Of a DNA stretch of 64,000 bases, positions 47,858-63,998 are shown piece after piece (the stretch's first letter is position 1; each line of letters opens with the position of its first letter). Where the stretch lies: the NCBI GenBank assembly GCA_002011035.2, contig MTLY02000003.1, forward strand, positions 352,001 through 416,000. The letters are read 5' to 3'. Below the pieces are notes generated by a model. That model had not been told where the DNA came from and made no database searches. It saw nothing but the letters and a program-made list of their open reading frames with translations. The translations under genes were made by a program, and so were the position numbers. Origin of the DNA: Candidatus Hecatella orcuttiae. Its GTDB lineage: Archaea > Thermoproteota > Bathyarchaeia > Hecatellales > Hecatellaceae.

Positions 47858-47919
47858 AGGCTGGGCCAAATCTTCAACAGTTTTAAATCAGGTTCCACCA
47901 TAATCCTAGAAGGAGCCGG

Positions 47920-48012
47920 GCGGCCGTAGTCTAGCTTGGTTAGGACATCAGCCTGCCAACCTTGGGAGGCAGAACGCTGAGGACCCGGGTTCAAATCCCG
48001 GCGGCCGCACCA
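47920..48012 (+). tRNA. tRNA-Gly(GCC) with 16-nt intron at canonical 37/38 (47959-47974), encoded CCA
   Basis: Acceptor GCGGCCG/CGGCCGC; TCAGC-CTGCCA[intron]C-GCTGA; T-arm CCGGG-TTCAAAT-CCCGG; CTGC/GCAG central helix of relaxed BHB. Confidence 0.93.
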
Positions 48013-48037
48013 TTCTAGAGCTGAATAGGTACTTTTT

Positions 48038-48184
48038 TCATCGGTCTACTAGCGGCACCCATTTTAACGTCTCCTTCAGGGCTTGGCTGAGGGCTTTCAG
48101 TTGGTGGTCTTCCAGTTCTTGAGGGTTGATGTATACTCTGGCCGGCTGGGATAGGGCTTCTCCCGCGAGGATTTTCTTCAGCAA
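48038..48184 (-). pseudogene. Short gene remnant abutting tRNA-Gly, possibly an integrase C-terminal tail
   Basis: LLKKILAGEALSQPARVYINPQELEDHQLKALSQALKETLKWVPLVDR*; resemblance from memory only, no catalytic residues. Confidence 0.3.
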
Positions 48185-48395
48185 TCATGCTTCTCATAGG
48201 CTCGGAGCCATTAAGGTGGTTGAAGACTGATCATGTTCACTCTAAACCAACTGCCTACATTAGGTATCTGTGGACTCTGCGGACTTGAATTCATCGCAAG
48301 GTTAATACTATCATGTGGACTAACTTGTGCAGGTTCTTTACCATACCAAGTTAGCCGGGACGAACGAAACCGTTGCCGAATGGTGGATGGTTTTT

Positions 48396-49625
48396 TTAAA
48401 TTCCAGCAGCTATTTTGGCTTCTGTCCATGCTTCAAAGTATTTGTCCCATATCGGTGGATCTGGGTGTTCCCAGTTGTAGAAGATTCCTTTCTCCAACAG
48501 GTCTTCAGGTTTATCCAATCCCAACAGTTTTATTATTTCGGGGTCCGCCAGTTCCCATCCTTTTACATTCGTGGATGCGTAATAGTAAACGTTGGTCAGA
48601 AATTGGCCTGTTCGAGGATCTAAGAAGGCATTTATGTAGTCATGGGCAAGCTCGTAGGTTCCTCTTTCTGGAGAGCCTTCTCCCACATTCATAGCGTAAG
48701 GCCAGATGAACAGAGCCTCTCCCGTCCTGTAATTGGCTCCAGGTGTAAGCCCCAGATAGACCACGTCCAAACCTTCAGCCAACCCTGCAGCGTACAATTC
48801 CGTCCACATGGTTGCAATGGCTACTTCGCCTTCTTTAAGACTTGCAAAAAGCTCATACTGGTCATCGTAGATAATTTTTGCTTGCTTAAACGCTTTCATC
48901 ACCGCATCTTTCCAAGCTTCTATCTGGTCATCAGTAGGATTTTTGAACTCTTCCACTGTAAACAATGCGTCGAACATAGGCCCAGCAATTTCAGAAGGAG
49001 CATCGTACATGGCCGTTCCTACCTCTGCATATTTTGGATCCCACAAGCACGACCAACTGTCAGGCTCTGGTAATCCCGCATCCCGGATTAGGTCTCTTCT
49101 GTAAATAATCGAAGTCATTCCCATATCCGTCACCAGCATATAGAGTTGGCCGTTGTGTCTGCCGTATTTTTCAACTAGTGCTTTAAAGAAAGGATGTACA
49201 TCTTGGTAGTTAGGTATCAAATCTAAGTCTATCGGCTCTAGCGCATCAAACTCCAAATATCTCTTGAAATGAGTCCAATAGCCGCCGAAGTTGGAGGCGT
49301 CAAACCTATCTCCAATCGCTATCCTTGCCAACGCTGAATCTTCATCAGGAAAAATGACGTGCGATACCTTTACATCCGGATGTTTTTCCCTAAACGCAAG
49401 CCACAGTTCTTCAACATCATACCCAGCCCACGTCCAAACTATTATCTCATTAGCTTTCGGTGGTGGTACTGGAGTTGGCGTAGGAGTTGGTGCGGGTGTC
49501 GGGGTTGGGGCTGGAGCGGGCCTTGTGGCCTGCCAAGCGGCGTAGCCGCCCACACCGGCCACCACCGCCGCAACCACGGCGGCGATGCCGTATTTCAGGG
49601 CCTTTCTTCGAGATTCATTACTCAT
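48396..49625 (-). CDS. PotD/PotF-like ABC substrate-binding protein with Tat-like signal
   Basis: SRRKALK twin-Arg + hydrophobic segment, PT linker, VWTWAGY, DSWSCLWDPKY, AHDYINAFLDP. Confidence 0.85.
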   Translation of the reverse strand: MSNESRRKALKYGIAAVVAAVVAGVGGYAAWQATRPAPAPTPTPAPTPTPTPVPPPKANEIIVWTWAGYDVEELWLAFREKHPDVKVSHVIFPDEDSALARIAIGDRFDASNFGGYWTHFKRYLEFDALEPIDLDLIPNYQDVHPFFKALVEKYGRHNGQLYMLVTDMGMTSIIYRRDLIRDAGLPEPDSWSCLWDPKYAEVGTAMYDAPSEIAGPMFDALFTVEEFKNPTDDQIEAWKDAVMKAFKQAKIIYDDQYELFASLKEGEVAIATMWTELYAAGLAEGLDVVYLGLTPGANYRTGEALFIWPYAMNVGEGSPERGTYELAHDYINAFLDPRTGQFLTNVYYYASTNVKGWELADPEIIKLLGLDKPEDLLEKGIFYNWEHPDPPIWDKYFEAWTEAKIAAGI

Positions 49626-49902
49626 TTTTATATATCTCTCCTAAAAGCGGCTGTTTATTATTCCGGTTCAGATTATATATAAATATTACGGTTTACTGAA
49701 CGATGTTGCTAAGATTTTTTGTTGGGCCGGATTTGCAAGCGTAATTTGCGGACTGCAGGGGTCAAGCTGATTGCTTCATGATTTAGGATCCTATTTATAA
49801 GTCTCTCTGTCACTGTAGAAACCCGGAAAACTCTCGACTAGGTTTTTCTGATTTTTCTAACTAAAGTCAACTTCTCAAATGCCTAGCTTTGAGTTGGCGT
49901 CT

Positions 49903-50679
49903 TCAGGCTGATATTCTTTCGATCATCCTCATCAAAAACGCAAGTCCGATGGCAAAAGACAATATGATGGAGGACATAGCCGTTAAGATTGGCACGAATT
50001 TTGGCAGTTTCATCAGCAAAGAGTAAATATACACAGGCGCTGTTTGCTCTGTCCCGGCAAGGAAAACCGCGAGGGCAACATCTTCCCACGAGATGATAAA
50101 GGCTAAAATGGCGGCCACCGCCACTCCTGGCATTATAAGAGGCAACGTTACTTTCCGAAAAGTGGTGAATTTACCCGCGCCCAAATCCATGGCAGCCTCT
50201 TCAAGACTTATGTCAAGAGCTATGAATCTGGAGGTTAAGACCAAGGTAGTGTAGGGTATGGTGATTAGAATATGACCTATAATGATGACTATTAACGATG
50301 GGTTTACCCCCATTTTTAATAAAAAGGACATCAAACTGAAACCCATGATGATGTAAGGTGTCACCATGGGCATCAGCAAGAGCCCTGTGAAAATTTTTTT
50401 CCCAGCGAAGTTTGTGCGCGCTAGTGCATACCCTCCGCAGATTCCGAAGATTACAGCGGCTCCCGTGGTAACGGAAGCGACCATGAGGGAGTATTTAACG
50501 GCATTTATAGCGGCTGGAAATCGGAGAAGTTCGATGTACCATTTGAGGGTGGGGAAGTTTCTTAAGGGCAGAGTAGAAGTTTCGTTGAGGGATAGCAGTA
50601 ACAGTATGGCGATGGGGAAAAATGTGAGTATCAACAAGAATCCAAGTACGACAATGAACATTATACTCGATTTCGTCAT
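49903..50679 (-). CDS. ABC permease, PotC-like
   Basis: TLKWY, LEEAAMDLGA, VTLPLIMPG. Confidence 0.9.
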   Translation of the reverse strand: MTKSSIMFIVVLGFLLILTFFPIAILLLLSLNETSTLPLRNFPTLKWYIELLRFPAAINAVKYSLMVASVTTGAAVIFGICGGYALARTNFAGKKIFTGLLLMPMVTPYIIMGFSLMSFLLKMGVNPSLIVIIIGHILITIPYTTLVLTSRFIALDISLEEAAMDLGAGKFTTFRKVTLPLIMPGVAVAAILAFIISWEDVALAVFLAGTEQTAPVYIYSLLMKLPKFVPILTAMSSIILSFAIGLAFLMRMIERISA

Positions 50680-50680
50680 T

Positions 50681-51604
50681 TTAGAGACTCTCCATCAGCT
50701 TCCTGAAGCCGATTCTCCGATAAAGTAGGAAGACCGCTATGAAAGTTATAATCAGCAGATAAACAGTGAAAGCCGCGGCTACATCCCACCTAAACCCCTT
50801 GAGGAAGAAATCGTAGATCAGGTTTCCAAACAATATTCCGGTTCTGCCTCCCACTACTGCTGGAGCTATGAATTCTCCCATCGTCGGAATAAACACGAAC
50901 AAAACTGCTACGAAAACTCCGGGTAGACTCAGGGGAAAAGTAACTTTTAGGAATGTTGTAATGGGCGAAGCGCCCAGATCGTCTGAAGCCTCCAGCAAAA
51001 CTCTGTCTATTTTTTCCAGCGACACGAATATCGGCAGAATCAACCAGGGAAACCATGTGGCAGTTAAAACCAGCCAAACAGAAAATAGGTTGTACCCCAA
51101 TAGTTTGATGGGCTCGCTTATTAAGCCGAAATATAGGAGCAATGAATTTATTACTCCTGTGCTGCCTAACATCAACCGCCAAGCCAGCAATATCAGCATA
51201 TAGGTGGCAAAATAAGGCGCTTGAAACAGGAATAGAACAGTATACTTATTTTTTAAAACTCTAAAGGCTATAAAATAGGCTACAACATACGCGAACAAAA
51301 CGGATGAAGCTGTAACGGTAACCGCTATAAAAAACGTTCGAAGTAGAAGTCTGGCATAATCCGTTCGGATGAATAGTTTTGCATAATTGCTGAGTACGGG
51401 AAAATTAACAACAGTTCTTGTCACAGGACTTAATTCAGCGAAGCTCAAGATTAACACTGAAAAAACAGGAATGAAAAATACGATGATAATCCATAAGTAA
51501 GTGGGTAGAACTAGCAAAAGATCTTTTAACCTTGAGTTGGTCTGTGCCGTGAAAAAATTCCGGAAAGATTTCTTTATACTCATATTACCACTTCCGTTCG
51601 ACAA
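50681..51604 (-). CDS. ABC permease, PotB-like
   Basis: GVINSLL, LLEASDDLGA, VTFPLSLPG, FIPTMGEF. Confidence 0.9.
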   Translation of the reverse strand: MSNGSGNMSIKKSFRNFFTAQTNSRLKDLLLVLPTYLWIIIVFFIPVFSVLILSFAELSPVTRTVVNFPVLSNYAKLFIRTDYARLLLRTFFIAVTVTASSVLFAYVVAYFIAFRVLKNKYTVLFLFQAPYFATYMLILLAWRLMLGSTGVINSLLLYFGLISEPIKLLGYNLFSVWLVLTATWFPWLILPIFVSLEKIDRVLLEASDDLGASPITTFLKVTFPLSLPGVFVAVLFVFIPTMGEFIAPAVVGGRTGILFGNLIYDFFLKGFRWDVAAAFTVYLLIITFIAVFLLYRRIGFRKLMESL

Positions 51605-51624
51605 TGGCCTCCAATGGATTTAGC

Positions 51625-52680
51625 CTAGGTTATCAACTTGGAGTCTTTCTTATTCCAACCGATTTTTACCTTCTCCCCAATTCCAAAAATGCCTTCCATG
51701 CCGGGACTGGGCGCTACAACTGAAATGGAGGAACCATTTTCCAGCAAAACTCTGTAGGTGACGACTCGGCCCTGATAATAGGCCTCTTTAACTTCTCCAG
51801 CGAATATATTATCCAACGCGTTTAACTTTCTTCCGATGAAAATTTTCTCCGGCTTGATGGAGACTAAGACTGATCCTTTGGATAGCTGACACTCAGGTGT
51901 GACGGTGATTTTCCCCAGATTATCGACTTCCACTGCCCCATTCTCATACCTCCCTTTGAAAACGTTAGTTCCCCCAATAAAATTAGCCACAAACTCAGAG
52001 TTAGGCTGTTCATAAATCTCGATAGGCGAGCCGATCTGCATGATCTTTCCGGCTTTCATTACGGCTATTTTGTCGGACATCGTTAGAGCTTCTCCTTGGT
52101 CGTGAGTGACGTAGATGAAGGTAGTGCCGACTTCACGTTTAATTCTCTTCAGCTCGACAATCATTTCCTCCCTAAGTTTTAGATCTAATGGTCCCAAAGG
52201 TTCGTCTAGAAGCAATACAGTTGGTTTATTAACCAAAGCCCTTACAATGGCAATTCTTTGTTTTTCGCCGCCGCTCAATTGGCTTATTTTCCTCTTTTCA
52301 TAGCCTGGAAGTCTAACGAGGTCTAACATTTCTTTAACTCTTGCTTTGATTTCGTTTTCCGGTATTTTTTTTATTTTTAATCCGAATGCTATATTTTCAT
52401 AAACGTTGAGGTGAGGGAATAGAGCTAAGCTCTGAAAGACTAGGTTTGTAGGCCTCTTAAAGGGGGGTACATCCGCCATAGGTTCTCCTTCGATGAGTAT
52501 CTCCCCTTCGGTTGGCTTCTCAAAGCCGCTGATCATTCTGAGTATAGTAGTCTTTCCACATCCGGAGGGCCCTAAGAGAGAAAAAAATTGTCCCTTTTCC
52601 ACTTGAAAGGAAACATCGCTAACTGCAACAACATCTCCGAATTTCTTAGTTACGTTTTTCAGTTCAACATCGATCTTCAT
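51625..52680 (-). CDS. ABC ATPase, PotA-like
   Basis: GPSGCGKTT, LSGGEKQR, LLDEP, YVTHDQ. Confidence 0.93.
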   Translation of the reverse strand: MKIDVELKNVTKKFGDVVAVSDVSFQVEKGQFFSLLGPSGCGKTTILRMISGFEKPTEGEILIEGEPMADVPPFKRPTNLVFQSLALFPHLNVYENIAFGLKIKKIPENEIKARVKEMLDLVRLPGYEKRKISQLSGGEKQRIAIVRALVNKPTVLLLDEPLGPLDLKLREEMIVELKRIKREVGTTFIYVTHDQGEALTMSDKIAVMKAGKIMQIGSPIEIYEQPNSEFVANFIGGTNVFKGRYENGAVEVDNLGKITVTPECQLSKGSVLVSIKPEKIFIGRKLNALDNIFAGEVKEAYYQGRVVTYRVLLENGSSISVVAPSPGMEGIFGIGEKVKIGWNKKDSKLIT

Positions 52681-52796
52681 CTTATCGGACCATTACTGAT
52701 ATATACAGGAAGAAGAATATAAAAATAATCGGTCAAGAAAAAGGCCAAAACATGGAAAGATTAAAACAAACTATGTTCCATTAGTGTTTATGAAAA

Positions 52797-54185
52797 GTGG
52801 AGGATACGCCTCATATGATTCTTTCGTTAGATGAAATTTATAGGAGGACTGAAGATGGTCCGATAGTGGAGGAGGAATATTTCGACAAAAAGCTTTTGCC
52901 CAGAAAACTTCGAGAACTAGCAAAGGAATATGATATTAATTACAATCCGGAAGAGCCCGTTCCAACTGACGACAAGTTAGCTGACGACGTTTTTGAGGCG
53001 GGGAAAAAGTTACTGTGTGATGTAGGTATTCTGTGTGTGGACACAGGTAGGTTGATAAAGTTCTCTGAGGATGAAATTAAAGAAGGACTTAAAGCAGCTC
53101 CAAATAAAATAACCATCGGGCAAGGTGAGAGATCCCGAGAAATAACTGAGAGAAAAGCAGAAGACAAAAAGATACCTTGGCTTGTTCCCGGCCCCAGCGG
53201 AATGCCTATATCAGAGGACTTGGCTAGCGTGATAGCTCAATCCATCGTTCAAGAACCGTTAGCAGAAGGTTACTGGACTCCAACTATTACGAAATATGGA
53301 GGGATGGAGGTAAAACTGCATTCTCCGTTGGAAGTTCTTGCATCAAGATATGAAATTATATCGGCCAAGGAGGGAGTCAGAAAGGCTGGTAAAGAAGGGC
53401 TTCCCATTGTTGGAGGAATGACAGGGTTAAGTCCAGCTGGATTCATCGCTTCTATATTTAATGGAGGATTTACGAGAGGGGACTGTCTTCTCGTAAGCTG
53501 CATGAACGAGTTGAAAATCAACTACGATATCATGACGAAAGTATGGTTCGTTTCAAAATGTAGCGACGTAAACCTGATGTATGATGCCACTCCTCTATTA
53601 GGCGGAATCGCAGGTGGACCGGAAGGCACTGCTTTAGTCTCAGTTGCTCAGGAAATAGAATGCCTGTTGCTGGGAGCAGACCTAAGCGGTGGTAACTCAA
53701 TCGATATTTGGTCTGGAACAAGCTCAGGCAGGAAGACCATGTGGGCCTCTAATTTATTCTTGAACGCCATGAACCGGAACGTCAACGCAATAGAGTATTG
53801 CTACCACTTTGCCGCAGCAGGACCTTGCACAGAAATGCTTCTCTATGAGGGGGCAGCGAAAACCATAAGTGTGGTGGCTGCAGGATACGATTTTCACTGT
53901 GGTCCTTTGGCCTTGAGAGCTGGGAAGGAAGATTACATTTCTCCGTTAGAATTTAGGCTCAGCTGCGAAGTCGCCCATGCCATGGCTGGAATTAAAAGGG
54001 AAAATGCCAATTACTTGATAAAAGAATTATTAGCAAAGTTCGAAGATAAAATTCAAAAACCGCCTCTTGGTAAAAGCTTTACCGAGTGTATGGACTTAAC
54101 TACGCTTCAGCCTTCCAAAGAATGGCAGGCTATCTACGAGAAAGTGAAAAAAGAATTAGAAGACTTGGGAATAAAATTCAAATGA
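52797..54185 (+). CDS. mtmB: MtmB-family corrinoid methyltransferase lacking pyrrolysine
   Basis: End-to-end similarity to MtmB (GPSGMPISE, SPLEVLA, NELKI, AGPCTEM, GKSFTEC, KELEDLG); Pyl site is GTT(Val). Confidence 0.88.
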   Translation: MEDTPHMILSLDEIYRRTEDGPIVEEEYFDKKLLPRKLRELAKEYDINYNPEEPVPTDDKLADDVFEAGKKLLCDVGILCVDTGRLIKFSEDEIKEGLKAAPNKITIGQGERSREITERKAEDKKIPWLVPGPSGMPISEDLASVIAQSIVQEPLAEGYWTPTITKYGGMEVKLHSPLEVLASRYEIISAKEGVRKAGKEGLPIVGGMTGLSPAGFIASIFNGGFTRGDCLLVSCMNELKINYDIMTKVWFVSKCSDVNLMYDATPLLGGIAGGPEGTALVSVAQEIECLLLGADLSGGNSIDIWSGTSSGRKTMWASNLFLNAMNRNVNAIEYCYHFAAAGPCTEMLLYEGAAKTISVVAAGYDFHCGPLALRAGKEDYISPLEFRLSCEVAHAMAGIKRENANYLIKELLAKFEDKIQKPPLGKSFTECMDLTTLQPSKEWQAIYEKVKKELEDLGIKFK

Positions 54186-54246
54186 CCTTTGTATAAGGGG
54201 CGGTCAAAGAAAGTAGCAGGCTTGTCGCGATGCCGCTGTTTCTGGT

Positions 54247-55590
54247 TTACGAACCCCGTATATTTTTGAGAGTGTCATAAGTAGCCTGTATGGTCTTTTG
54301 TATATCTTCCGGCTCATGCATCGCCGAAACCATCCACTCCTCAAACCATGCTGAACCGCTCGGTATTATTCCTCTATTCAACATGTTGATCCAGTATTTA
54401 TTCCACATCGCCGCGTCGCAAGCTGAAGCTTCTCTGTAGTTTTTTGGAACCTTGTCCAATCCGAAGAAGATGCATCCCATCATGGTGCATCTGCCCACAG
54501 CGGCTTTTATACCTGTATCTGCTATGGCGTCTACAACTCCCTTGTACAACTCCTCGCCAAGGTTGTTAATTTTCGCATAGGCATTAGAGGTTAATACCTT
54601 TTTCAGGCAGGCTAAGCCTGCAGCTGTTGAAAGAGGATTGGCGTTATAGGTTCCGTAGTGCACAACACCGCCCAAAGGAGTTATCATCTCCATGTATTCT
54701 CTCTTTCCGCCGAACGCGGCCAGAGGTGATCCGCCGCCGATGGCTTTGGCGAAAGTTACCAAGTCGGGTTCAATACCGTAGAGTTGGCTTCCGCCCCCCT
54801 CAGCTAGATTGCATCCTGTCTTAACTTCATCCAATATTAACAAAATGCCATATTCATCGCAAAGCCTTCTAACTTCCCTGAAATAGTCTTTTTCCGGGGT
54901 TATGATCCCGCTGTTGGTAAGCACAGGCTCGGTTACTATCGCCGCAACTTCGTTTTCATGCTTTTTCAACACTCTTTCCAAGCCGTCGGCATCGTTAAAG
55001 TGAACCACCAAGGTCTGTTCGACGTTCTCCTTCGGTGTGCCCAGCGAGTCGGGAGTGGATGCAGGGTTATGTATCGATCCTAACAGGATGCGTCTTCTGG
55101 GTTTATCGCTTATCAGCAGCACATCGTTTGCTCCATGATAGGAGCCCTCCATCTTAACCACCTTAGTCCTCCCTGTGATTCCTCTGGCAAGCCTAACGGC
55201 ATAGAAAGTTGCTTCCATTCCCGTGTTCGCAAAGCGGAGCATCTCAACATACGGGTACCTTCTCATTATCTCTCTCGCCAATTCATCGGCCCCTTCCCCT
55301 TGAAATCCCAGCAACGTCCCCCGCTCCGCCTGCTCTTTTATCGCTTCAACTATGATGGGGTTAGCGTGACCAGCAGTCATGGCTCCGTAGGCCAGACAAT
55401 GGTCTACATACTCTCTTCCGTCTAAGTCCCATAGCTTGCCGCCCTTTCCCCTTGCCATGTAAAGCGGATAGGGCTTAAAGAATTGGATAGCTGTATTTAC
55501 TCCTCCAGGAATAATCTGAGATAGTTTTTCGAAAAACGCCTTTGAAGCTGGGGTGTTTTTAATATATATATCCTCTTCAGCCAATGCCAC
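54247..55590 (-). CDS. Class III PLP aminotransferase, HemL-like
   Basis: IPGGV, GSYHG, LILDEVKTG, TFAKAIGGG, HYGTYNANP. Confidence 0.88.
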   Translation of the reverse strand: MALAEEDIYIKNTPASKAFFEKLSQIIPGGVNTAIQFFKPYPLYMARGKGGKLWDLDGREYVDHCLAYGAMTAGHANPIIVEAIKEQAERGTLLGFQGEGADELAREIMRRYPYVEMLRFANTGMEATFYAVRLARGITGRTKVVKMEGSYHGANDVLLISDKPRRRILLGSIHNPASTPDSLGTPKENVEQTLVVHFNDADGLERVLKKHENEVAAIVTEPVLTNSGIITPEKDYFREVRRLCDEYGILLILDEVKTGCNLAEGGGSQLYGIEPDLVTFAKAIGGGSPLAAFGGKREYMEMITPLGGVVHYGTYNANPLSTAAGLACLKKVLTSNAYAKINNLGEELYKGVVDAIADTGIKAAVGRCTMMGCIFFGLDKVPKNYREASACDAAMWNKYWINMLNRGIIPSGSAWFEEWMVSAMHEPEDIQKTIQATYDTLKNIRGS

Positions 55591-56033
55591 GTAAATTCAC
55601 CGTTTTCATTTAACAATCGATGTTTATTTAACATTTTCGACAGGGGGTAGAGGCGGGTCTTTTATTTAATTTTTCAGTTAAAAGGCATCGTCTATGTGCC
55701 GCAATTAATTTATTTCTATTCATAACAAAAATAGGCTCTCTCTTTACCAATTTGCCTTTTATCTTGTCTATACCATCAATTTTCTACTTAGAACTGTGCA
55801 GCTTGATGCATATCTCGGCATAAGTCAATGGACAAACTCCCCTTAAACAACAAGCATTGAGAAAAATATCAAACCTAACTTCAAGATAGACAACAGACTC
55901 CGAATAATTTTTTGGTTAAATTTCTCTCAAAGAAGAAAGGGGGAGGTAATTTGTTAACCCTGCGCATTGCTGAGCTTCATTTCATTTGATCTGCCTGCGG
56001 TGTTGGCAGGATTTTTGATTTGTCGGAGACTGC

Positions 56034-57440
56034 TCAAACTTTCGAGAGTTTCTCGAGGCGTTCTACACAATTAATTTTGATGCCGAGCAGTTCAGCGATC
56101 CTAACTTTAGCTTCGAGTCCTTTCGCTGCACCCGGTAAACCAGTTATAACACCGATGTCAAGTTTTTCCCTAAGCTTTCTCATAGTAAACTCATCACAAA
56201 GCTCTATTGAGGAGACACCTAGCTTTTTAGCGACGTAATCCTTCGCTTCAGGTAGTCTCATTTTCTTTTGCAACTGCATCCTACCAATCAGGTCGCCTGA
56301 TGTTCTGATGCTGCCTATGCCACCGGCTACCAGATGCCCAATGGGCATTCCAATGCAGTCTCCGACACCCACCTAAATGCCATCGACGCCGGCTATCTCG
56401 ATCATAGCTTTGTTCGCTCTAGTTACTGTATCCAACGGTGGTGTTTCTAACATGGGCACGCCGCCTACACCCATTCCCATGTTGGGGTGAACAGGGATAG
56501 TCGCTTCTCTCACGCATGCCTTGGTAAACGTAACCGCCCTGGAGAGATTCCATGGGAAAGTGAGGTGGGGTTTTGTATTTATCACAGGTCCAAATATGTC
56601 GACACCCGCTTTTTCCGCTACTTTAAGTTGTTGATGCGGCCACATTCCAGCCAAACGTTCTCCTGCATATTTCAATTCCGTGTGAAATCCGTGTACAGCC
56701 TCGGTAGCCATACCCATCTGGACAGCTAGGTCGGGGTACACCTTTTTCAATGACTCTGTAGCCGTAAGGGCTGCATAAAAGTCAGGATCTCCCGCCGCTC
56801 CTACTGTATCGATATTTATTCCATCCACGCCTACTCTTCTGAGATGTTTAGCTACATATATTATGGCATCATGACATTCTCGAGCAGCGCCCTCCATAGA
56901 TTTCCTCGCTTCGTCGTTCTTTCCTTCTCTGATCAGAGAGATCGGTTCAGGCCATTGACCATCAGGCTTATAGAAATAGCCTAAGTTGGGCATAGCCATG
57001 AATTCTAGAGGACTGATCGACGTGTGCAGAGTATTGTGGATAACATTCGCCAAATAGCTCACTATTACCTTTGCAGGCTTAAAGCTTCCATCCGATTCAG
57101 GAAATTGTAGTATATCAAGTCCAAGCACCCTTTCAGACAGCGCTCCTTGAGCAATGGAACGTTCAATCGGCATACCTAATCCACTAGTGCCAGAGTCAAT
57201 CCAGAAAGTCGAGCCTCCTGCATCAGCGGACAGGACGACCTCGCATCCATGTTTTACAGCCACAACCTTATTGGCGTCGATGATAATTTCATATAATGTT
57301 TCCAGATCTTCGCCGGTTAATTCGGGTATTTTCGCCCTTTCTGCAGCGTCTTTTGAACCCAATTCTAGGTCGTCTTTGATCTGTTTACCCGTCATGGTGA
57401 TCAGTCTACCATCGCCTCTTCTCGTCAAATGTTCTGGCAT
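56034..57440 (-). CDS. mtbB: Dimethylamine:corrinoid methyltransferase MtbB with in-frame amber (pyrrolysine) codon 356; 468 aa
   Basis: Track ORFs 56373-57440 and 56034-56372 are in one frame, joined by TAG at 56373-56375: [18 protein letters not shown], matching MtbB GVDGI-O-IGVGD. Confidence 0.92.
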
Positions 57441-57476
57441 ACGTTCTCACCTCCTTTCTATTTTTATTTGTGAGCA

Positions 57477-58127
57477 TCATTTTTTTAGAAGGCAAGTGCG
57501 GGATGCAAGGAGTCTTTTAGCTTTAACTACAGCATCCATTGCGTCGGCACCCCATTCGTCGGCGCCGATCTCTTTTGCATGCAATTCGGTTGTTGCTCCT
57601 CCGCCCACCATTACTTTAACGTCATCACGAACTCCTGCTTCCTTCAGAGCATCAATTACCTCTCTTTGGGCGATGGCGGTTGTGGTCATGAGAGCGGAAC
57701 AACCTACAAATGCGGGTTTGTGCTTTTTAACTGCCTCTACAAATTTTTCAGCAGCAACATCTCGACCTAGATCGATGACATCGAATCCTTGAGCTTCCAG
57801 CATCGTGGCCACTATACTCTTACCGATGTCATGAATGTCGCCTTCAACTGTACCGATTATGAACTTGGCTTTTTCACCTCTTTTCTTCCTAGGCACTTTT
57901 TTAAGCAAAACGTCCGCAACCTTCTTGATGGCCTCGGCAGAAAGAACTACTTGTGGAAGAAATATCTCTGACCTACCGTATAGATCTCCTACCTGCCTGA
58001 TAGCCTCAGAGGCATGGTCCAACGCCCTTAAAGGTTCAATACCTGCTTTCAGACAAGCCTCAGCGATTTTAACAGCGCCCTCAACATCTTGATTTAAGAT
58101 CGCATTATAGAGCTTATCTAGTTCCAA
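57477..58127 (-). CDS. mtbC: Methyltransferase corrinoid protein
   Basis: EIFLPQV, GTVEGDIHDIGK (DxHxxG), SALMTTT, MVGGG; immediately upstream of mtbB. Confidence 0.9.
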   Translation of the reverse strand: MELDKLYNAILNQDVEGAVKIAEACLKAGIEPLRALDHASEAIRQVGDLYGRSEIFLPQVVLSAEAIKKVADVLLKKVPRKKRGEKAKFIIGTVEGDIHDIGKSIVATMLEAQGFDVIDLGRDVAAEKFVEAVKKHKPAFVGCSALMTTTAIAQREVIDALKEAGVRDDVKVMVGGGATTELHAKEIGADEWGADAMDAVVKAKRLLASRTCLLKK

Positions 58128-58298
58128 AATTATGCACCCCCTACTTTTTTATATTAAAGTTTTTTTTAAACATAATGTTTCACCCTCTTTTTGGATCTTT
58201 ATTTCAAAATCACTAGCATCTGTCTTCACTTTACAACTTGTTATCGCGGATGTAGCAAATAATTCATTAGCCTACACCGCGGCCTGAAAATATCACTT

Positions 58299-58318
58299 CT
58301 ACATACTTATCGATGTAG
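58299..58318. promoter_or_regulatory. Candidate operator CTACAT-N8-ATGTAG upstream of mtbCB
   Basis: Inverted repeat with spacer ACTTATCG; near copy at 62463-62480. Confidence 0.45.
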
Positions 58319-58520
58319 TCCCCTAATTTAGTGGTGTTCATCATAGTCTCGTTGAGTTTTCTCGATCAAAAAATAAGTGAAACGAGTTTTCGGTCTTCTC
58401 GAGGAAGTACGGATATGGTTAAGAATCATAATTCGGCGAGAAAAGGAGTTCCTGTCGGCAGTTTCGCTGGAGAAAAGCATGTCGCCTCAATAATAAGTGG
58501 CAAGGAACTTTTACTAATTA

Positions 58521-58943
58521 TTATGCGCCCAGTTTTTTAACTGTTAATGCGCCTGTGGGGCACCATTCAACACATGCCGGAGAACCTTGACATAGGTCGC
58601 ATATCAGCGGTTTTCGACGTGGTTCATTCATCCTTATCGCCGAGTATGGACATTCTTCAACGCACAATTTGCAGCCTGTGCACTTTTCCTCATCGAGTAT
58701 AACAGCCCCGGTTTTCTCATCTTTTTGGAGTGCTTTCACAGGGCAGACTTGAATACAGGTGGCTTCTTCGCATTGAATGCACGCAACAGGATACACGAGA
58801 GTAGGCGGATAGCTTGTTGCAATGTGGATTCTGGATACTTTCGGATTAAACACTGAGGCTTTTTTGAATGAGCAGATAAGCTCGCATGTTTTACAGTCGG
58901 TGCATTTTTGGCCATCAATCAACAAGCGGATGGAGATAAGCAT
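58521..58943 (-). CDS. 4Fe-4S multicluster electron-transfer subunit (AOR-associated, DmsB/CooF-like)
   Basis: SD GGAGGTG before ATG 58943; CTDCKTCELIC, CIQC..CIQVCP, CTGCKLCVEECP, CDLC..CVEWCP. Confidence 0.9.
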   Translation of the reverse strand: MLISIRLLIDGQKCTDCKTCELICSFKKASVFNPKVSRIHIATSYPPTLVYPVACIQCEEATCIQVCPVKALQKDEKTGAVILDEEKCTGCKLCVEECPYSAIRMNEPRRKPLICDLCQGSPACVEWCPTGALTVKKLGA

Positions 58944-58951
58944 CACCTCCT

Positions 58952-60793
58952 TCACGTTACTAGGTCGGTAAGTTCCAATTCGATAAGCTTCTCCCTCGTA
59001 GGTTCGCCTTCTCGGTTCCACCCTCTCAGTTCATAGTACTCATCGAGCAGCTTAGTCATGTCGTCGGAGGTAACTTTGTGCCCCTTGGCCGGCCCTGAAG
59101 GCAGAGGTTCCCCGGTGAACCGCTTGGGTAAACAGTCGTCTTTCCGCGTAAAGCCTTCGCGAATGTTAAACATGCGGATCAAATTCCATACACGCTCACC
59201 TAGCTTCATAAATTCATCTGCACCTCCCTTCCACCCGGTGGCCAGCGACAACAACTCCGCATAGTGCTCAGGTTGAAGGCCTGTTCGGCTGAAATCGCAG
59301 CAGGGAAGCGTGCAAACAGCCGTAAGCCAATCCTGCTCCCACTTGACGATTTCAGCCTTACCCTTGAGCGAAAGCCGCTCCACGGTGCCGGAGGGTCCGG
59401 GGATTCCCTCAACCTCGTACGCGATCGGCCATCCCCGCTCATGGCAGCCGCCCCTGTCAGCTGTGGCTAGGGCCAGCGCCATTCCCGGGGCTCCCCTGGG
59501 AGGCCACGCCGGCGTCTCCAGCCCCTTGATGCTGACAGCTAAATCTAACGCTCGGCCGCCTATCTTTTCCGAAGCTTGCTTTACGCCTTCAGCCATCAGG
59601 TCGCCTATCCCTTCTCGGCGGGCTATTCTTTCAACAAGCTCAAGCACAGCTTTGGAGTTCCCAAACTTCGGGTTAACCCCTTGGAAATCCTCCGAGGTCA
59701 GAATTCCCTTTTCAAAAAGCTCCATGAAGAAACCTATGACGCCGCCGGTGGATATGGTATCTAACCCCAGTTCATCGCACAGGTAATTTGCGTAAGCCAC
59801 AGCGTCCAGATCCGTGATGCCGCAGTTGGCTCCCAGCAGGCCGGTGGTTTCATATTCCACACCGTCCACCACGGTACCCGCGTAGGGGCCTTTCTTTATC
59901 ATCAGAAGGTGGCCGCATCGAATGGGGCAGGAGAAGCAGGCAACCTTTCTAAAGCGGACGGCCTTGGACTGAATTCTGCCTGAAAGCTTTTCCGCCCCCC
60001 GGATGCTTCCGTCTTGAAAGTTTCTTGTCGGGAAGAAACCTTCAGAGTTGGCGAAATCCACAGACCCCGCGGTTCCGTATTCCGTCCACGTCGCTCGCAC
60101 AGCTTCGCTTTCAACCAGAGCCTTGTGCAGCTTTCTCGCAGCTTTCACAAATTCCTTTGGATTGGCCACCTCCACAGGCTTTGTTCCTCGAACGGCCACA
60201 GCCTTCAGATTCTTTGAGCCCATCACGGCTCCTAGGCCTCCCCTCCCCGCCTGCCGGTAGTCACAGCCGACGCACGCAAACCTGACAAGTCTCTCTCCCG
60301 CCGGTCCGATGCACGCTGTTTTCACCTCGTTGTCGCCGAGCTCTTTTTTGACGGCAAGGGCGGTCTGGGTTATGGTAAGACCCTGAAGGTGGCTGGCGTT
60401 TTTGATTTCCACATGCTCATTGTCGATCCAGATGTAGCTGAGTTTTTCAGCCTTCCCCGTGAGCACCAAGGCATCGTAGCCGGCGTATTTTAGTTCCTGG
60501 CTGAAATAGCCCCCAACATAGCTGTCGCAAAAGGTTCTCGTGAGGGGGGACTTGGAGACCACGATGCCCTTCTGAGCTGGAGCCAGCGTACCTGTCAAAG
60601 GCCCTGTGCTGAATATGAATATGTTTTCAGGGCCAAGGGGATCAGCCTTGGGGGGTAGCTCCTTATACAATATCGCTGCTGCTTGCCCTTTTCCACCGAC
60701 CAGTCTCCTAGCAACAGATAAATCCAATGGCTGCCGGAGTATTCGCCCTGTGGTTAAGTCTATGCAAAGAATATTCCCCTGATAACTATCCAT
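58952..60793 (-). CDS. aor: Aldehyde:ferredoxin oxidoreductase (W/Mo AOR family)
   Basis: SKSPLT, IGPAGE, AGRGGLGAVMGSKNLKA, CFSCPIRC, EYET, GLDTIS, YYELRGW. Confidence 0.93.
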   Translation of the reverse strand: MDSYQGNILCIDLTTGRILRQPLDLSVARRLVGGKGQAAAILYKELPPKADPLGPENIFIFSTGPLTGTLAPAQKGIVVSKSPLTRTFCDSYVGGYFSQELKYAGYDALVLTGKAEKLSYIWIDNEHVEIKNASHLQGLTITQTALAVKKELGDNEVKTACIGPAGERLVRFACVGCDYRQAGRGGLGAVMGSKNLKAVAVRGTKPVEVANPKEFVKAARKLHKALVESEAVRATWTEYGTAGSVDFANSEGFFPTRNFQDGSIRGAEKLSGRIQSKAVRFRKVACFSCPIRCGHLLMIKKGPYAGTVVDGVEYETTGLLGANCGITDLDAVAYANYLCDELGLDTISTGGVIGFFMELFEKGILTSEDFQGVNPKFGNSKAVLELVERIARREGIGDLMAEGVKQASEKIGGRALDLAVSIKGLETPAWPPRGAPGMALALATADRGGCHERGWPIAYEVEGIPGPSGTVERLSLKGKAEIVKWEQDWLTAVCTLPCCDFSRTGLQPEHYAELLSLATGWKGGADEFMKLGERVWNLIRMFNIREGFTRKDDCLPKRFTGEPLPSGPAKGHKVTSDDMTKLLDEYYELRGWNREGEPTREKLIELELTDLVT

Positions 60794-60840
60794 ATCTTAT
60801 CATTACCAATTATCCGTTTAAAAAATTTAGTGGTAGAGAA

Positions 60841-60993
60841 TCGGCGCCCCCCCTGCCTACACCATGGCCTGAATATCCCTTCTACATACCCATTGGTGTA
60901 GTCCTCTCTCTGATAGCATTCGTCGTAGTCTCCTTGATAACTCGTCCAATACCAGAAGAAAGGCTGCAGAGATTTTTCCCGACCAAAAAGTAG
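60841..60993 (+). pseudogene. C-terminal remnant of a sodium:solute symporter-like membrane protein
   Basis: YIPIGVVLSLIAFVVVSLITRPIPEERLQRFF*; no upstream coding body (AOR lies there, divergent). Confidence 0.55.
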
Positions 60994-61274
60994 AAAATGA
61001 AAAGACTTTCCAACCCCCTCAAGAAAGTATACGTATGGCTGAGAATGATTGGTTCGACGAAAGAAAGAATCCCCTCAGCAACTTCGCCAGAGAAAAACAG
61101 CTACTCTAAATTTACCACGGACTACGGGGCTATGCAGGGTTTTTAAGAAACCTGTCAAGATTCCGAATGGCATCGGTGAAATCGATGAAGAATTATGTTA
61201 AATATGGGTAAGGCTGATAAACGCTTGATGAAGGTGTTTTATTAATTCAAAGCAGACTAATCTTAAGAATACGA

Positions 61275-62450
61275 TTATATTTTTGACAACTCTTTTTCTC
61301 TCAGGATTAGTACGGCTCCAGTGAACTGGTTGTCTTGATTTTCGATGGGGGTAGTGTAAATGAACGTTCTCAGAGGGCTTCCTCCTTTCTTCAGGAACTC
61401 AAATTCATGAACTTCATCGAACCTATGTTTCCGCCTGTTTTTTATGCTATGGAGAATTTTTCCCCATCTCTGACTGCAGAACTCCTCAAGATTCTTGCCC
61501 ACCATCTCCTTTGATGTGTATCCGAGCATCTCAGCAGTCCTTGGGCTGACATATGTAGTGTTGAACTCTGCGTCTACAAGCCATAAGCCTGTCTCTCCTT
61601 TCATGGCTGACGTCCTCTTTGGGGGAAGTTTTGTTTTTAACAGGGTATCCACAAGTTTAAAGGGGTCCGCTGAGCTCCACATTTCCTCGAAGAATCTTTG
61701 GTATAGCCTTGTCCAACCTTTGCTGTTCAGCCATATATCTCTACAGCAAGAGTTCGATGGCCATCTTTCCATGTCTATTGCTATTCCGACAATGGTCCAT
61801 TTATCATCAATAATCATCGTGTGAAAGGGGATTCTGGAAATTTGTCTTAACTCTGCAAACTTATTGCAGATTTCAACCTCGCGGATGATTGTCTCGTCAA
61901 CCTCCGTAAGTATCCTCACCGGCATCCTGTGAGAGCATTTTCTTAATATGTCAACGAGACCATGATACTCCGCCAGATAAAGACCTGCCCCTGGCACCAT
62001 GTAGTCTATTTTGTTTTCCGCCGATTTACATAATGCGATCTTTTTACTATAGACTTGTTTCATTCCAGTCAAAATTTGTATGCCTTCTCTTTCTTCTCTC
62101 TCTTCTTCTTTCTCCTCACTTACTGCTTTCAGAGCGTCGACGAGCCTAGCTTTGTTAGATGCTATTCTGTTCACTCTTTCTCTTTCAGCCGCTAATAACC
62201 AATCTACAAGCATCTCAGGTTTAACGGCTTTAAATTTTTTAGGCCGTTCCAATAAAGACTGGATAAGTTCCCGTCCTTCAAGCTTCTTAAGTATGCGGTA
62301 GACTTCAGGCCGAGGGATTCCTGCCCGACGGGCTAACTGGTTTGCGGTTAGGTCTGAGCTATATTTTATTAGTGTAACCAGTACTTTAATGTCGTTTCCA
62401 GATAAGCCGAACTCGCTTAGGTTCTGTACAATTTCTTGTTCTTTACTCAA
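61275..62450 (-). CDS. TrmB-family regulator with C-terminal PAS domain
   Basis: FGLS, GIPRPEVYRILKKLE, RPKKFKAV; PAS: TYVSPRTAEMLGYTSKEMVGK...KKGGS. Confidence 0.85.
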   Translation of the reverse strand: MSKEQEIVQNLSEFGLSGNDIKVLVTLIKYSSDLTANQLARRAGIPRPEVYRILKKLEGRELIQSLLERPKKFKAVKPEMLVDWLLAAERERVNRIASNKARLVDALKAVSEEKEEEREEREGIQILTGMKQVYSKKIALCKSAENKIDYMVPGAGLYLAEYHGLVDILRKCSHRMPVRILTEVDETIIREVEICNKFAELRQISRIPFHTMIIDDKWTIVGIAIDMERWPSNSCCRDIWLNSKGWTRLYQRFFEEMWSSADPFKLVDTLLKTKLPPKRTSAMKGETGLWLVDAEFNTTYVSPRTAEMLGYTSKEMVGKNLEEFCSQRWGKILHSIKNRRKHRFDEVHEFEFLKKGGSPLRTFIYTTPIENQDNQFTGAVLILREKELSKI

Positions 62451-62462
62451 AATAATGTCCTT

Positions 62463-62499
62463 AACATTGTTATCGATGTTGTAACTTAAAAAGGTTACA
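62463..62499. promoter_or_regulatory. Two adjacent palindromes in the divergent TrmB/HxlR promoter
   Basis: AACAT-TGTTATCG-ATGTT, and TGTAAC-TTAAAAAG-GTTACA around a TATA-like box. Confidence 0.5.
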
Positions 62500-62506
62500 C
62501 TACTTT

Positions 62507-62821
62507 ATGACAGATGACCGATTTAATACCCTTAATAAGAGAATGTTGGATTTGAAGATCGAGAAAATCGGAAAAACCACAACCGTAGCTGTGCTAATTT
62601 TGATATTCCAAGCCGGCTCCGTGAGGCATAGGGACATAGCTAAACATGTTCCAAGCAGAGGGGCTTTATCTTCAGCTCTGAACTCTCTGCTGGAAGAAAA
62701 ACTCGTAACACGTCAAGTGAACACCGAATCCATGCCAGCTCAAACCTACTACACCATAACCGAGAAAGGCAGGGAAGTGGCGAGAAGATTTGATGAAATC
62801 ATAGATATCTTAAAAGGCTGA
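62507..62821 (+). CDS. HxlR-type winged-helix regulator
   Basis: LSSALNSLLEEKLVTRQV..MPAQTYYTITEKG. Confidence 0.8.
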   Translation: MTDDRFNTLNKRMLDLKIEKIGKTTTVAVLILIFQAGSVRHRDIAKHVPSRGALSSALNSLLEEKLVTRQVNTESMPAQTYYTITEKGREVARRFDEIIDILKG

Positions 62822-62906
62822 AAAACATTCCCTTTCTTGTAACTATGATATCTGACAAACACAAGTTTTTGAGTATCCGACAATCATTAGATTATAGGTC
62901 TTAGAA

Positions 62907-63443
62907 ATGAATAAAACCTCCATTATTCACAATATTCAAAGTAACGAGCAAATGAAGATGAAAAATTTAAGATACGAACAGGAGATCATCGAGTTTTTCT
63001 CACTTTTTAGAGAGAATAAAGCGATCAGCATACCTCTTGAGGCCTTCATGGATTTCAAGAAGGCTTTAAAGGACTGTTTTGGCTCCGGGGGAGTTGTAAT
63101 CTTAAGTGAGATGGGAAAAGGCCATGGCATATATTCAACCAAGCGTTTACTGGATGAACATCCTAATAGACCCAGCTTGCTAGAAGTCATAACCAGCTAC
63201 AAGCAAAAGGAGGGATGGGGGAACATGGAATTTAGAATGAAACCTTCCGAAGCGGAAGTTATTATAACTAAAAGCTTCGAGGCGGAGTATCATGAGAGGT
63301 CCAAAGAACCTGTTTGCCACTTCTTGAGAGGCTACCTAGAAGGGGTCATAAGCCAAATCGTCGGCAAAGAGATAAAAGTTTCGGAAATCCGCTGCAAAGC
63401 AACAGGGAACGAGACCTGCGTTTTCAAAATACAACCGCCATAG
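62907..63443 (+). CDS. V4R-domain protein
   Basis: GWG, SFEA, PVCHFLRGYLEG, EIRCKATGNETCVF. Confidence 0.88.
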   Translation: MNKTSIIHNIQSNEQMKMKNLRYEQEIIEFFSLFRENKAISIPLEAFMDFKKALKDCFGSGGVVILSEMGKGHGIYSTKRLLDEHPNRPSLLEVITSYKQKEGWGNMEFRMKPSEAEVIITKSFEAEYHERSKEPVCHFLRGYLEGVISQIVGKEIKVSEIRCKATGNETCVFKIQPP

Positions 63444-63603
63444 GGCGTATTGATAGTTCTATCATCATAGTTTTAGTAGTTTCCAGCAAACATCTATGAC
63501 CTGTTAATCTAAGCCCAACAGCATTTAAAAGAGAAAATTATAAAGAATTTAATCTCCAGCCAGCACCCATAAGTAAAATGGGTGAGGAACCGAACCTGAA
63601 GTT

Positions 63604-63704
63604 TGGAGCCCCGGGCGGGGTTTGAACCCGCGACCTTAGCCTTACCAAGGCCACGCGCCACCAGGCTGCGCCTACCCGCCCTTGCTTCGTAAGGGAACCG
63701 GGGC
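63604..63704 (-). tRNA. tRNA-Thr(GGT) with 24-nt non-canonical intron at 8/9 (63673-63696), encoded CCA
   Basis: Acceptor GCCCCGG/CCGGGGC; D-stem GCGC/GCGC; TGGCC-TTGGTAA-GGCTA; T-arm GCGGG-TTCAAAC-CCCGC; BHB around insert. Confidence 0.9.
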
Positions 63705-63794
63705 ATCTGCTCCGGGGCTTCAGGCTACGCTTTAAGTGTAGGATAAAATGAATATAAGAATTAAGTTCAACTCCCCAGGGGGATGGGTTCTCGG

Positions 63795-63998
63795 CTAGGC
63801 TAGGTGGACGGATATGTAGTGAAGCTCCACCACGCCTCCCTCCGATATCAGGATGCCGAAGTTCACCGTGGAGTCTTCAACCCACATCAGCACCTTATTC
63901 GCATCCCAGCCCCACTGCTGTATGAAGGATAAGATCATCCCCCTAGTTAGGCTCCATTGGTCTGAGGAGAGGTAGGAGGTTTCCCCTTCATGGAAGGT
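63795..63998 (-). CDS. C-terminal end of a protein entering from beyond the window
   Basis: Open frame ...TFHEGETSYLSSDQWSLTRG...VELHYISVHLA*. Confidence 0.5.
   Translation of the reverse strand, partial: TFHEGETSYLSSDQWSLTRGMILSFIQQWGWDANKVLMWVEDSTVNFGILISEGGVVELHYISVHLA

Follow-up and report, generated by a model that had tools for sequence, protein, structure and literature searches.

Between two tRNA genes of Candidatus Hecatella orcuttiae (Archaea; Thermoproteota; Bathyarchaeia; GenBank assembly GCA_002011035.2) there are genes for the import of amines, for the removal of methyl groups from them, and for the oxidation of aldehydes, which raises the question of whether these genes serve one catabolic system or are neighbours only. 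The segment, called the island below, occupies positions 48013-63603 of the window, the stretch of 64,000 nucleotides (nt) that was analysed (contig MTLY02000003.1, positions 352,001 to 416,000; G000:C3:352001-416000, G000 being the host genome), and coordinates without a contig name are positions in that window. A first-pass annotation had proposed import, stepwise N-demethylation, transamination, and oxidation of methylated amines. The components that it listed, a Pot-type importer, an MtmB without pyrrolysine (Pyl), a HemL-like aminotransferase, an amber-containing MtbB with a corrinoid protein, an aldehyde:ferredoxin oxidoreductase (AOR) with an Fe-S subunit, and three regulators, are all present at the places it gave, as judged by open reading frame (ORF) listing, Pfam, and NCBIfam.

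The island can be read as a horizontally acquired composite locus for the use of N-methylated, polyamine-like amines in a non-methanogen with the Wood-Ljungdahl pathway, a reading that we would place a little short of an even chance. Best supported within it is that a methylated amine, positively charged and resembling a polyamine, is taken up and N-demethylated in a corrinoid-dependent manner, and that the amine is processed by an enzyme dependent on pyridoxal phosphate (PLP).

The importer, MtmB, and the HemL-like enzyme

The part of the island that recurs in other populations consists of the following genes:

48396-49625, minus strand: substrate-binding protein with an N-terminal membrane anchor (Pfam SBP_bac_8/6)
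49903-50679, minus strand: PotC-like permease (Pfam BPD_transp_1; best NCBIfam model PotC, 133 bits, cut-off 326)
50681-51604, minus strand: PotB-like permease (Pfam BPD_transp_1; best NCBIfam model PotB, 141 bits, cut-off 348)
51625-52680, minus strand: PotA-like ATPase (Pfam ABC_tran and TOBE_2)
52797-54185, plus strand: Pyl-free methyltransferase of the MtmB family (Pfam MtmB, PF05369, 347.4 bits, profile positions 5-450 of 450)
54247-55590, minus strand: HemL-like class III PLP enzyme, an aminotransferase or aminomutase (Pfam Aminotran_3, PF00202, 216.6 bits)

A metagenome profile scan with the alignment of the MtmB clade gave 62 loci, the neighbours of which were identified by tblastn with the window proteins. 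The contigs L073 and L074 are mutually 99.5% identical over 10 kb and hence represent one population. In both, a corrinoid gene and the MtmB gene behind it (75% identity) converge on the aminotransferase gene (84%), after which come potA (78%), potB (67-72%), potC (68%) and then, in the orientation of the aminotransferase gene, the binding protein (75.6%), a corrinoid gene, and a 499-amino-acid (aa) MttB without a stop. In L075, from a second population, a corrinoid gene and MtmB (58%) again converge on the aminotransferase (75%), followed on the same strand by an M20 peptidase and then by DUF362 and zinc alcohol dehydrogenase (Zn-ADH) genes. The MtmB and the HemL-like enzyme are therefore paired in every visible locus of the clade, that is in the window and two populations, with the same importer in two of the three. 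Neither the aminotransferase nor the importer was found at the 24 other loci of at least 5 kb, which carry MtmB homologs at 30-40% in the usual corrinoid-MtmB pairs. The importer, the Pyl-free MtmB, and the HemL-like enzyme are a conserved, transferable module.

The island MtmB matches that of Methanosarcina barkeri (1L2Q, E=4.5e-68). In the ungapped HMMER alignment Pyl202 of 1L2Q corresponds to Val205, and the frame is without a stop, so that the description of this enzyme as Pyl-free stands. The pyrrolysine column is V, I, or L in all eight members of the clade, in which the motif LPxVGGMTG replaces the canonical context GMGxOGPET. Among 5.8 billion clustered proteins there are seven relatives at 51-80% identity, one of them labelled 'Hadesarchaea archaeon' at NCBI, and the next best is at 40%; in a tree that includes 120 homologs besides the host paralogs, the clade of eight clusters has a support of 1.0 and a stem length of 0.37. 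A scan of genome contigs with the island MtmB as single query returned one distant bacterial fragment only. Comparison with the relatives suggests that the protein probably starts at the ATG at 52815, six codons downstream of the annotated start (456 aa). The divergence from potA noted in the first-pass annotation is confirmed, but with this start the gap is 134 bp rather than 116 bp.

Homologs of MtmB without pyrrolysine had long been known, but none had an assigned function before the characterisation, in 2026, of MtqB, an enzyme demethylating tetramethylammonium and choline, with a little activity on monomethylamine (PMC13044021, in the part of the article available). The island MtmB agrees in part with the definition of MtqB given there, as it is an MtmB homolog lacking pyrrolysine that has a corrinoid partner in its orthologs. 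Further marks of the MtqB type are clustering with MtqB, conserved Met/Cys and aromatic residues at the site, and activity on tetramethylammonium or choline. The O-demethylase of Bathyarchaeia (10.1101/2022.10.23.513425) was considered as a model for these 460-aa MtmB homologs and rejected, as it is of about 300 aa and, in the part of the report available, reportedly has no homology to known methyltransferases. Rejected also was the possibility that the island MtmB is a monomethylamine enzyme that completes the MtbB reaction, since a canonical Pyl-containing MtmB exists in the host and the companions of the clade are the aminotransferase and importer, not MtbB.

The importer resembles polyamine systems at a distance. 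The ATPase scores 355.6 bits against the potA subfamily model TIGR01187, for which the cut-off is 355.6, and 376 against 482 for the PotA equivalog. The binding protein is well below the equivalog level of PotF and PotD (25.9 bits with the PotF model, cut-off 636) and is rare: in a set of 1.84 billion representatives, seven relatives reach E<=1e-30. PotF and PotD are nevertheless its nearest named families, with weak matches in 72 and 71, respectively, of the 74 members of the binding-protein family. In the AlphaFold 2 model (pLDDT 91.5) the protein is predicted to be polyamine-receptor-like in fold, in keeping with what had been proposed for the importer: the top 29 PDB fold matches listed are PotF, PotD, SpuD/E, VcPotD1, YdcS, or putative spermidine/putrescine binders, and the nearest, PotF/PotD/SpuD, have a TM score of 0.8 on target length at 15-20% identity.

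The PLP enzyme is a paralog of HemL and not the housekeeping HemL. It falls below the HemL equivalog TIGR00713 (431.8-432 bits, cut-off 527.3) and passes the broad glutamate-1-semialdehyde (GSA) aminomutase subfamily model NF000818 (433.7 bits against 398), while the true hemL of the host, at G000:C3:665888, scores 612.8 bits and adjoins hemA at C3:663644. Its closest solved relatives are GSA aminomutases, followed by beta-transaminases and other class III enzymes, and its matches in the ESM Atlas are exclusively clusters named 'glutamate-1-semialdehyde aminomutase'. The clade of the PLP enzyme is wider than that of MtmB, with about 19 clusters at 71-84%, many at 50-66%, and some bacterial labels.

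To our knowledge, the Pyl-free methyltransferases of the methylamine type that have been characterised all act on quaternary amines. Demethylation of a quaternary amine yields a tertiary amine, which is not a substrate for an aminotransferase, and either a secondary-amine substrate or several demethylations would therefore be needed before the PLP enzyme could act; both points run counter to the composite reading. The MtmB-clade enzyme could instead be an MtqB-like quaternary-amine methyltransferase, with the HemL-like enzyme acting elsewhere, in the supply of extra 5-aminolevulinate for corrinoid synthesis or on an unrelated amine. The non-Pyl MttB family, a member of which is present in L074, is known for quaternary amines, and both the passing of NF000818 and the GSA aminomutases as best solved relatives would suit this alternative. 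MtqB, the sole non-Pyl MtmB for which a function has been shown, has substrates of this kind (PMC13044021, available part). This alternative is nonetheless improbable, as the convergent pairing of MtmB and the aminotransferase has been kept across hosts although G000 has a true hemL and hemA, and as the importer is of the polyamine-receptor type and not of the betaine/choline type.

Borders and probable acquisition of the island

The two tRNA genes directly abut the island, as the first-pass annotation had it:

47920-48012, plus strand: tRNA-Gly(GCC), intron-bearing, left border (93 nt; ARAGORN; Rfam tRNA 59.4 bits)
63604-63718, minus strand: tRNA-Thr(GGU), right border (Rfam tRNA 36.1 bits over 63615-63672, model positions 9-63)

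The tRNA-Thr gene was not called by ARAGORN and was found by Rfam. Read by eye, it has a non-canonical intron of about 36 nt that separates the 5' half of the acceptor stem from the D arm, acceptor halves GCCCCGG and CCGGGGC, an anticodon loop UUGGUAA, and an encoded CCA. Across 48000-63700 the GC content drops from 0.55-0.61 to 0.39-0.48, and beyond it returns to about 0.53-0.55; the island as a whole has about 0.45, against 0.51-0.525 for the three host contigs. Within the island the AOR region is the exception, at 0.52-0.57. A 443-nt AT-rich gap (55591-56033) between the start of the aminotransferase and the end of MtbB is without a match in Rfam and contains no ORF of at least 70 aa. Elsewhere in the window, large ORFs (539 and 562 aa) at 7958-11298 are without a Pfam match at E<=1e-8 and are followed by a 2-kb stretch, 12001-14000, with a GC of 0.41.

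MtmB homologs were found in none of the four genomes of the host's family, and no orthologs of the island MtmB or aminotransferase were found in 400 other genomes of the phylum; of these, three have a match to the aminotransferase at E<=1e-120, all at 44-45% identity. In L074 the EPSP synthase is 45.7% identical to the host copy, compared with 68-84% for the module proteins, and the GC of the module is 0.503, compared with 0.563 for the remaining contig. Acquisition by gene transfer is supported by the tRNA borders, the drop in GC, the contrast with EPSP synthase, and the rarity of the genes in relatives. That the segment had been called an island is thus borne out, since it has the tRNA flanks, the deviant composition, the absence from relatives, and the greater closeness to foreign DNA than to be seen in a housekeeping gene that are looked for in a genomic island.

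Some observations argue against this history. Among the 16 ORFs scanned there is no Pfam family of integrases or recombinases, and no att-like flanking direct repeat of 16 nt or more was found at the island, and a classical integrative element is disfavoured because of the lack of both. An empty insertion site is not demonstrable, as gene order in the family relatives is too scrambled: matches there are limited to an acetyl-CoA synthetase and three scattered genes of the right flank, and no tRNA was called at the three loci compared.

If the genes had no common function, being unrelated ones gathered between two tRNA genes or brought together by an assembly join, the absence of an integrase or repeat marking a discrete mobile element would be expected. 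Logan contigs from four other runs (X5-X8) also all break at both tRNA genes, and none bridges the borders independently; the loose contig ends beyond tRNA-Gly may belong either to island-free strains or to other organisms. Such a chance assemblage is very improbable, however, given the core synteny conserved in other populations, the identical contigs of run X5 that tile the interior from 44500 to 64000, and the location of the island deep inside a contig of 731 kb.

The MtbB and AOR genes

The remainder of the island joins the core to a second methyltransferase, to the AOR, and to regulators. The features are:

56034-57440, minus strand: MtbB, dimethylamine methyltransferase, with an in-frame TAG at 56373-56375 (Dimeth_Pyl, PF09505, profile positions 2-353 and 355-461)
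56276-56375, minus strand: PYLIS-like element starting at the TAG (Rfam PYLIS_2, RF02509, 44.5 bits, gathering score 36)
57477-58127, minus strand: MtbC-like corrinoid protein, the only one in the island (Pfam B12-binding and B12-binding_2)
58289-58324, no strand: 36-nt element upstream of mtbC that contains the palindrome CTACA-N10-TGTAG, within a stretch of about 260 nt shared with the region upstream of aor
58521-59021, minus strand: poly-[4Fe-4S] electron-transfer subunit paired with the AOR (Pfam Fer4 families)
58952-60793, minus strand: enzyme of the AOR family (Pfam AFOR_N 251 bits, AFOR_C 482 bits)
60872-60907, no strand: second copy of the 36-nt palindromic element, upstream of aor (30/36 identical)
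61275-62450, minus strand: regulator with a TrmB-type helix-turn-helix and PAS (Pfam)
62452-62487, no strand: third copy, less well matched (64%; core ACAT-N8-ATGT), in the divergent promoter region of trmB-PAS and hxlR
62507-62821, plus strand: HxlR-type winged-helix regulator (Pfam)
62907-63443, plus strand: V4R-domain protein with an MsvR-like C-terminal part (Pfam V4R; NCBIfam MsvR 54.9 bits, below cut-off)

The amber-containing MtbB and its corrinoid gene had been recognised correctly. The TAG, at profile position 354, splits the Pfam match into pieces at 56373-57440 and 56034-56372 on the minus strand, and with this single TAG, the PYLIS-like element, the adjacent corrinoid gene, and a PylS in the genome, MtbB fits a Pyl-dependent dimethylamine methyltransferase. 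The corrinoid protein scores 209 bits with TIGR02370 (cut-off 215.3) and 189.6 with the MtbC equivalog (cut-off 350). The AOR is not GAPOR (44 bits against 1300). Its 3' end is overlapped for 70 nt by the ORF of the Fe-S subunit, the true start of which is probably further downstream.

The stretch of about 260 nt common to 58128-58520 and 60794-61274, that is upstream of mtbC and aor, has about 67% identity and is found nowhere else in the genome, in which the strict form of the palindrome CTACA-N10-TGTAG occurs three times. On the plus strand the aor copy encodes the C-terminal end of a membrane protein (an 88-aa ORF, 60727-60993), while the mtbC copy is frameshifted; there are no paralogs of the 88-aa ORF or of the small ORFs of this stretch elsewhere in the genome. 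The shared stretch may be a gene relic or a duplicated control region. The window has no conserved upstream motif in common with L074, and L073-L075 do not contain the palindrome.

Linkage of AOR genes to MtmB genes is not restricted to the island. Among the 150 listed of 215 AOR matches, an AOR lies no more than 7 kb from an MtmB homolog in at least 16 of the 56 MtmB-bearing genomes and at least 7 of their 21 genera, where about 5-10% would be expected by chance; at genus level a rough binomial test gives p ~2e-4, a value to be read in the light of related genomes not being independent. The arrangement is fixed as FeS-AOR-corrinoid-MtmB-MtmB in seven of the nine genomes of genus g43 (such as L065, G016:C1:863000-882900), with the AOR 0.8 kb from MtmB, and the same spacing is seen in G072 of genus g57. 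Should g43 be Methanosuratincola, its Pyl-free MtmB genes may account for the growth on monomethylamine reported for that genus (PMC12244365). In G069, which is of the host's class, a single strand carries FeS, AOR, a Pot-type ABC system, a saccharopine-dehydrogenase-like gene, MtmB, ABC genes, and Fae/Hps (L059, G069:C6:34700-54600), there being two Pot-type ABC systems and a non-Pyl MtmB without a nearby corrinoid gene. The host itself has further AOR-MtmB loci at C3:600-610 kb (PotCBA and a binding protein, a corrinoid protein, two MtmB, FeS, AOR) and at C1:512.8-520.1 kb (MtmB, URO-D, corrinoid protein, AOR, and FeS on one strand). This enrichment and the shared stretch upstream of mtbC and aor are indirect support for a link of AOR and MtbB to the core.

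The core might, on the other hand, be a pathway by itself, with MtbB/MtbC for plain dimethylamine use and AOR/FeS for general aldehyde oxidation as separate modules within the same acquired or rearranged stretch. What first speaks for this, and equally weighs against the composite reading, is that AOR, FeS, MtbB, and the three regulators are without counterparts in L073, L074, and L075, with 7-12 kb available, and that L075 has Zn-ADH and M20 peptidase genes instead. The pathway first proposed is partly supported: the recurrence looked for is seen for importer, MtmB, and aminotransferase in L073/L074 and for MtmB and aminotransferase in L075, but, over the length of these contigs, not for AOR with FeS or for MtbB/MtbC. 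The same weight attaches to the host-like GC of the AOR and to the generality of FeS-AOR pairs in the host, where four of the six AORs, besides that of the island, have an FeS neighbour. The island AOR is, among the 150 matches listed, 39-43% identical to MtmB-adjacent AORs and 45-47% to non-adjacent ones. Also against the composite reading are the lack of a corrinoid gene beside the island MtmB, unlike in its orthologs (the nearest is the one by MtbB), and the closeness of the PLP enzyme to aminomutases, which suggests that it could do something other than transamination.

That the core stands alone, for which a second MtbC-MtbB pair in the canonical Pyl cluster of the host can also be adduced, seems rather unlikely. 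While about 0.58 AOR-MtmB pairs are expected in G000 by chance (10 MtmB loci, 6 AORs), three are present (P ~0.02), and the adjacency extends over the genera counted above. An element common to the promoters of mtbC and aor is hardly found elsewhere in the genome, and in L074 the place of MtbB/MtbC is occupied by the non-Pyl MttB and corrinoid pair. This pair fits a second demethylation step, without being proof of one.

The host and known systems

The host genome (1.75 Mb, three contigs, 97% complete) is by its gene content that of a methylotroph that has the archaeal form of the Wood-Ljungdahl pathway and shows nothing pointing to methanogenesis. McrA was not found in it, while PylS (C1:350087), one RamA (on contig C1), two MtrH, CdhC, and Mch are present, with a CdhA-like gene inside the window; the earlier view of a probable non-methanogen with cdh/acs agrees with this. 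It is also the case, as had been observed, that the window has no MtbA-type gene, RamA, or mcr, the nearest of six URO-D-type (MtaA/MtbA-like) genes being at G000:C3:322907, outside the window. By tblastn with the window proteins the host has 12 MtmB homologs, at least 14 corrinoid proteins, two MtbB, and six AORs. Its canonical Pyl cluster (G000:C1:334000-356500) comprises MtbC-MtbB, this second MtbB also with a TAG, an MttB with a single stop, a corrinoid protein, PylS, and an MtmB with its corrinoid protein; the MtmB (C1:354094-355440) has a TAG exactly at the pyrrolysine position. Besides this set there are 11 Pyl-free MtmB, one of them beside the cluster at C1:334240, and three Pyl-free MttB.

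Other non-Pyl MtmB loci of the host lie amid genes for the catabolism of nitrogen compounds, which suggests that the paralogs differ in the N-methylated compound that they serve. At G000:C3:589000-610300 (L142, L143) there are Zn-ADH, a PALP enzyme, a class III aminotransferase, an M20 peptidase, DUF362, and xanthine-dehydrogenase-like subunits, together with a Pot-type ABC system, a corrinoid protein, two MtmB, FeS, and AOR; the M20, DUF362, and ADH proteins are 57%, 49%, and 41% identical to those beside the MtmB-aminotransferase pair of L075. At G000:C1:508000-524000 (L144) the MtmB/URO-D/corrinoid/AOR/FeS genes are found among three amidohydrolases, two carbamoyltransferases of the aspartate/ornithine type, and a PnrA-like ABC system, and the genes here may serve the use of a methylated heterocycle or ureido compound.

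In the composite reading, the Pot-type importer would first take up the amine, and the MtmB-like enzyme would transfer an N-methyl group to a Co(I) corrinoid protein, which is encoded just upstream of MtmB in the other hosts and here would probably be either MtbC, encoded nearby, or one of the paralogs, of which there are at least 14. The PLP enzyme would then turn the freed primary amine into a carbonyl compound, and where this is an aldehyde, the AOR with its Fe-S partner would oxidise it and reduce ferredoxin. The core would be joined here to Pyl-MtbB/MtbC, for further demethylation or for dimethylamine use, to AOR and FeS, and to the three local regulators. Methyl groups would leave the corrinoid through MtaA/MtbA-like or MtrH-like enzymes encoded elsewhere, and pass by the tetrahydromethanopterin branch to acetyl-CoA synthase. 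The identities of the genes, the conservation and transfer of the core, and the fold of the binding protein are what the analysis shows, while the substrate class, the order of the steps, the aldehyde intermediate, and the participation of AOR and MtbB are what we infer from the genes so combined.

The route might in principle run in the synthetic direction, an aldehyde being aminated and the amine methylated from methyl-corrinoid to give an N-methylated solute, since corrinoid methyl transfers and transaminations are reversible. Binding-protein-dependent ABC systems import, however, and the host is rich in methyl-consuming components (RamA, MtaA/MtbA-like, MtrH, CdhC), which makes this direction the least probable of all the alternatives.

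A more far-reaching possibility, which we regard as doubtful, is that of an unrecognised pathway in which the Pyl-independent MtmB clade removes N-methyl groups, secondary or tertiary, from polyamine-like compounds, with the HemL-derived aminotransferase and a dedicated polyamine-type importer as obligate partners. The module would move between subsurface archaeal lineages, methyl groups would enter the Wood-Ljungdahl pathway, and aldehydes would pass through AOR to ferredoxin; substrates might include N-methylated di- or polyamines that derive from diatom silica or necromass. Were this so, non-methanogenic, pyrrolysine-using archaea of subsurface and marine sediments would have a new route by which to compete with methanogens for methylated nitrogen compounds, the capacity for methylated-amine use would spread by gene transfer, and the AOR-MtmB linkage across several families of the phylum would make aldehyde oxidation a regular companion of non-Pyl MtmB chemistry. 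MtmB homologs without pyrrolysine long lacked a known function, and the host alone has 11 of them; a small clade with fixed neighbours provides a testable handle on a second substrate class, through the binding protein, the methyltransferase, and the PLP enzyme. No description of a cluster of MtmB, HemL-like aminotransferase, and Pot-type importer, or of an AOR-MtmB linkage, was found in the literature searched, which was full text, with supplementary gene tables and most subscription journals lying outside it.

Several known systems are comparable in part. In Escherichia coli putrescine is imported by PotFGHI, converted to an aldehyde by PatA, a class III aminotransferase, and oxidised to an acid by PatD, an aminobutyraldehyde dehydrogenase. 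The logic of import, transamination, and oxidation is the same, and the island binding protein is nearest to the PotF/PotD folds, but the island aminotransferase belongs to the HemL branch and not to the PatA branch, the proposed oxidation is by a tungsten/molybdenum AOR with ferredoxin and not by an NAD-dependent dehydrogenase, and corrinoid demethylation is added. HemL itself is the closest solved and curated relative of the island PLP enzyme, which differs in being under the equivalog cut-off and away from hemA, with a true HemL elsewhere.

The canonical MtmBC/MtbBC/MttBC systems are of the same families, and resemble the island in its MtbB with a TAG and a PYLIS-like element; the host has PylS and TAG-bearing MtmB, MtbB, and MttB of this kind at C1:341-356 kb. 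The island MtmB is unlike canonical MtmBC in having Val at the Pyl site within LPxVGGMTG, and its identity to MtmB proteins from beyond its clade does not exceed 40%. In the non-Pyl MttB systems, such as MtgB for glycine betaine, a Pyl-free first methyltransferase (MT1), a corrinoid protein, and a methyl acceptor lead to the C1 pathway in non-methanogens (10.1101/2020.03.09.984617, available part). L074 is similar in having a non-Pyl MttB beside the module, while the island MT1 is of the MtmB family, with an aminotransferase and a polyamine-type importer added.

A further parallel is MtqB/MtqC of Methanococcoides methylutens Q3c, in which a Pyl-free enzyme of the MtmB family has a corrinoid protein annotated as of the dimethylamine type (PMC13044021, available part). 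Orthologs of the island MtmB likewise have a corrinoid gene directly upstream. Unlike that system, the island is in a non-methanogen, its MtmB is found together with a Pot-type importer and a HemL-like PLP enzyme, neither of which is mentioned for MtqB in the part of the article available (PMC13044021), and the corrinoid gene that belonged to MtmB has been lost from the window copy. Set beside these systems, the island is likely to be a new route for the use of methylated amines, within the known type of system based on corrinoid methyltransferases.

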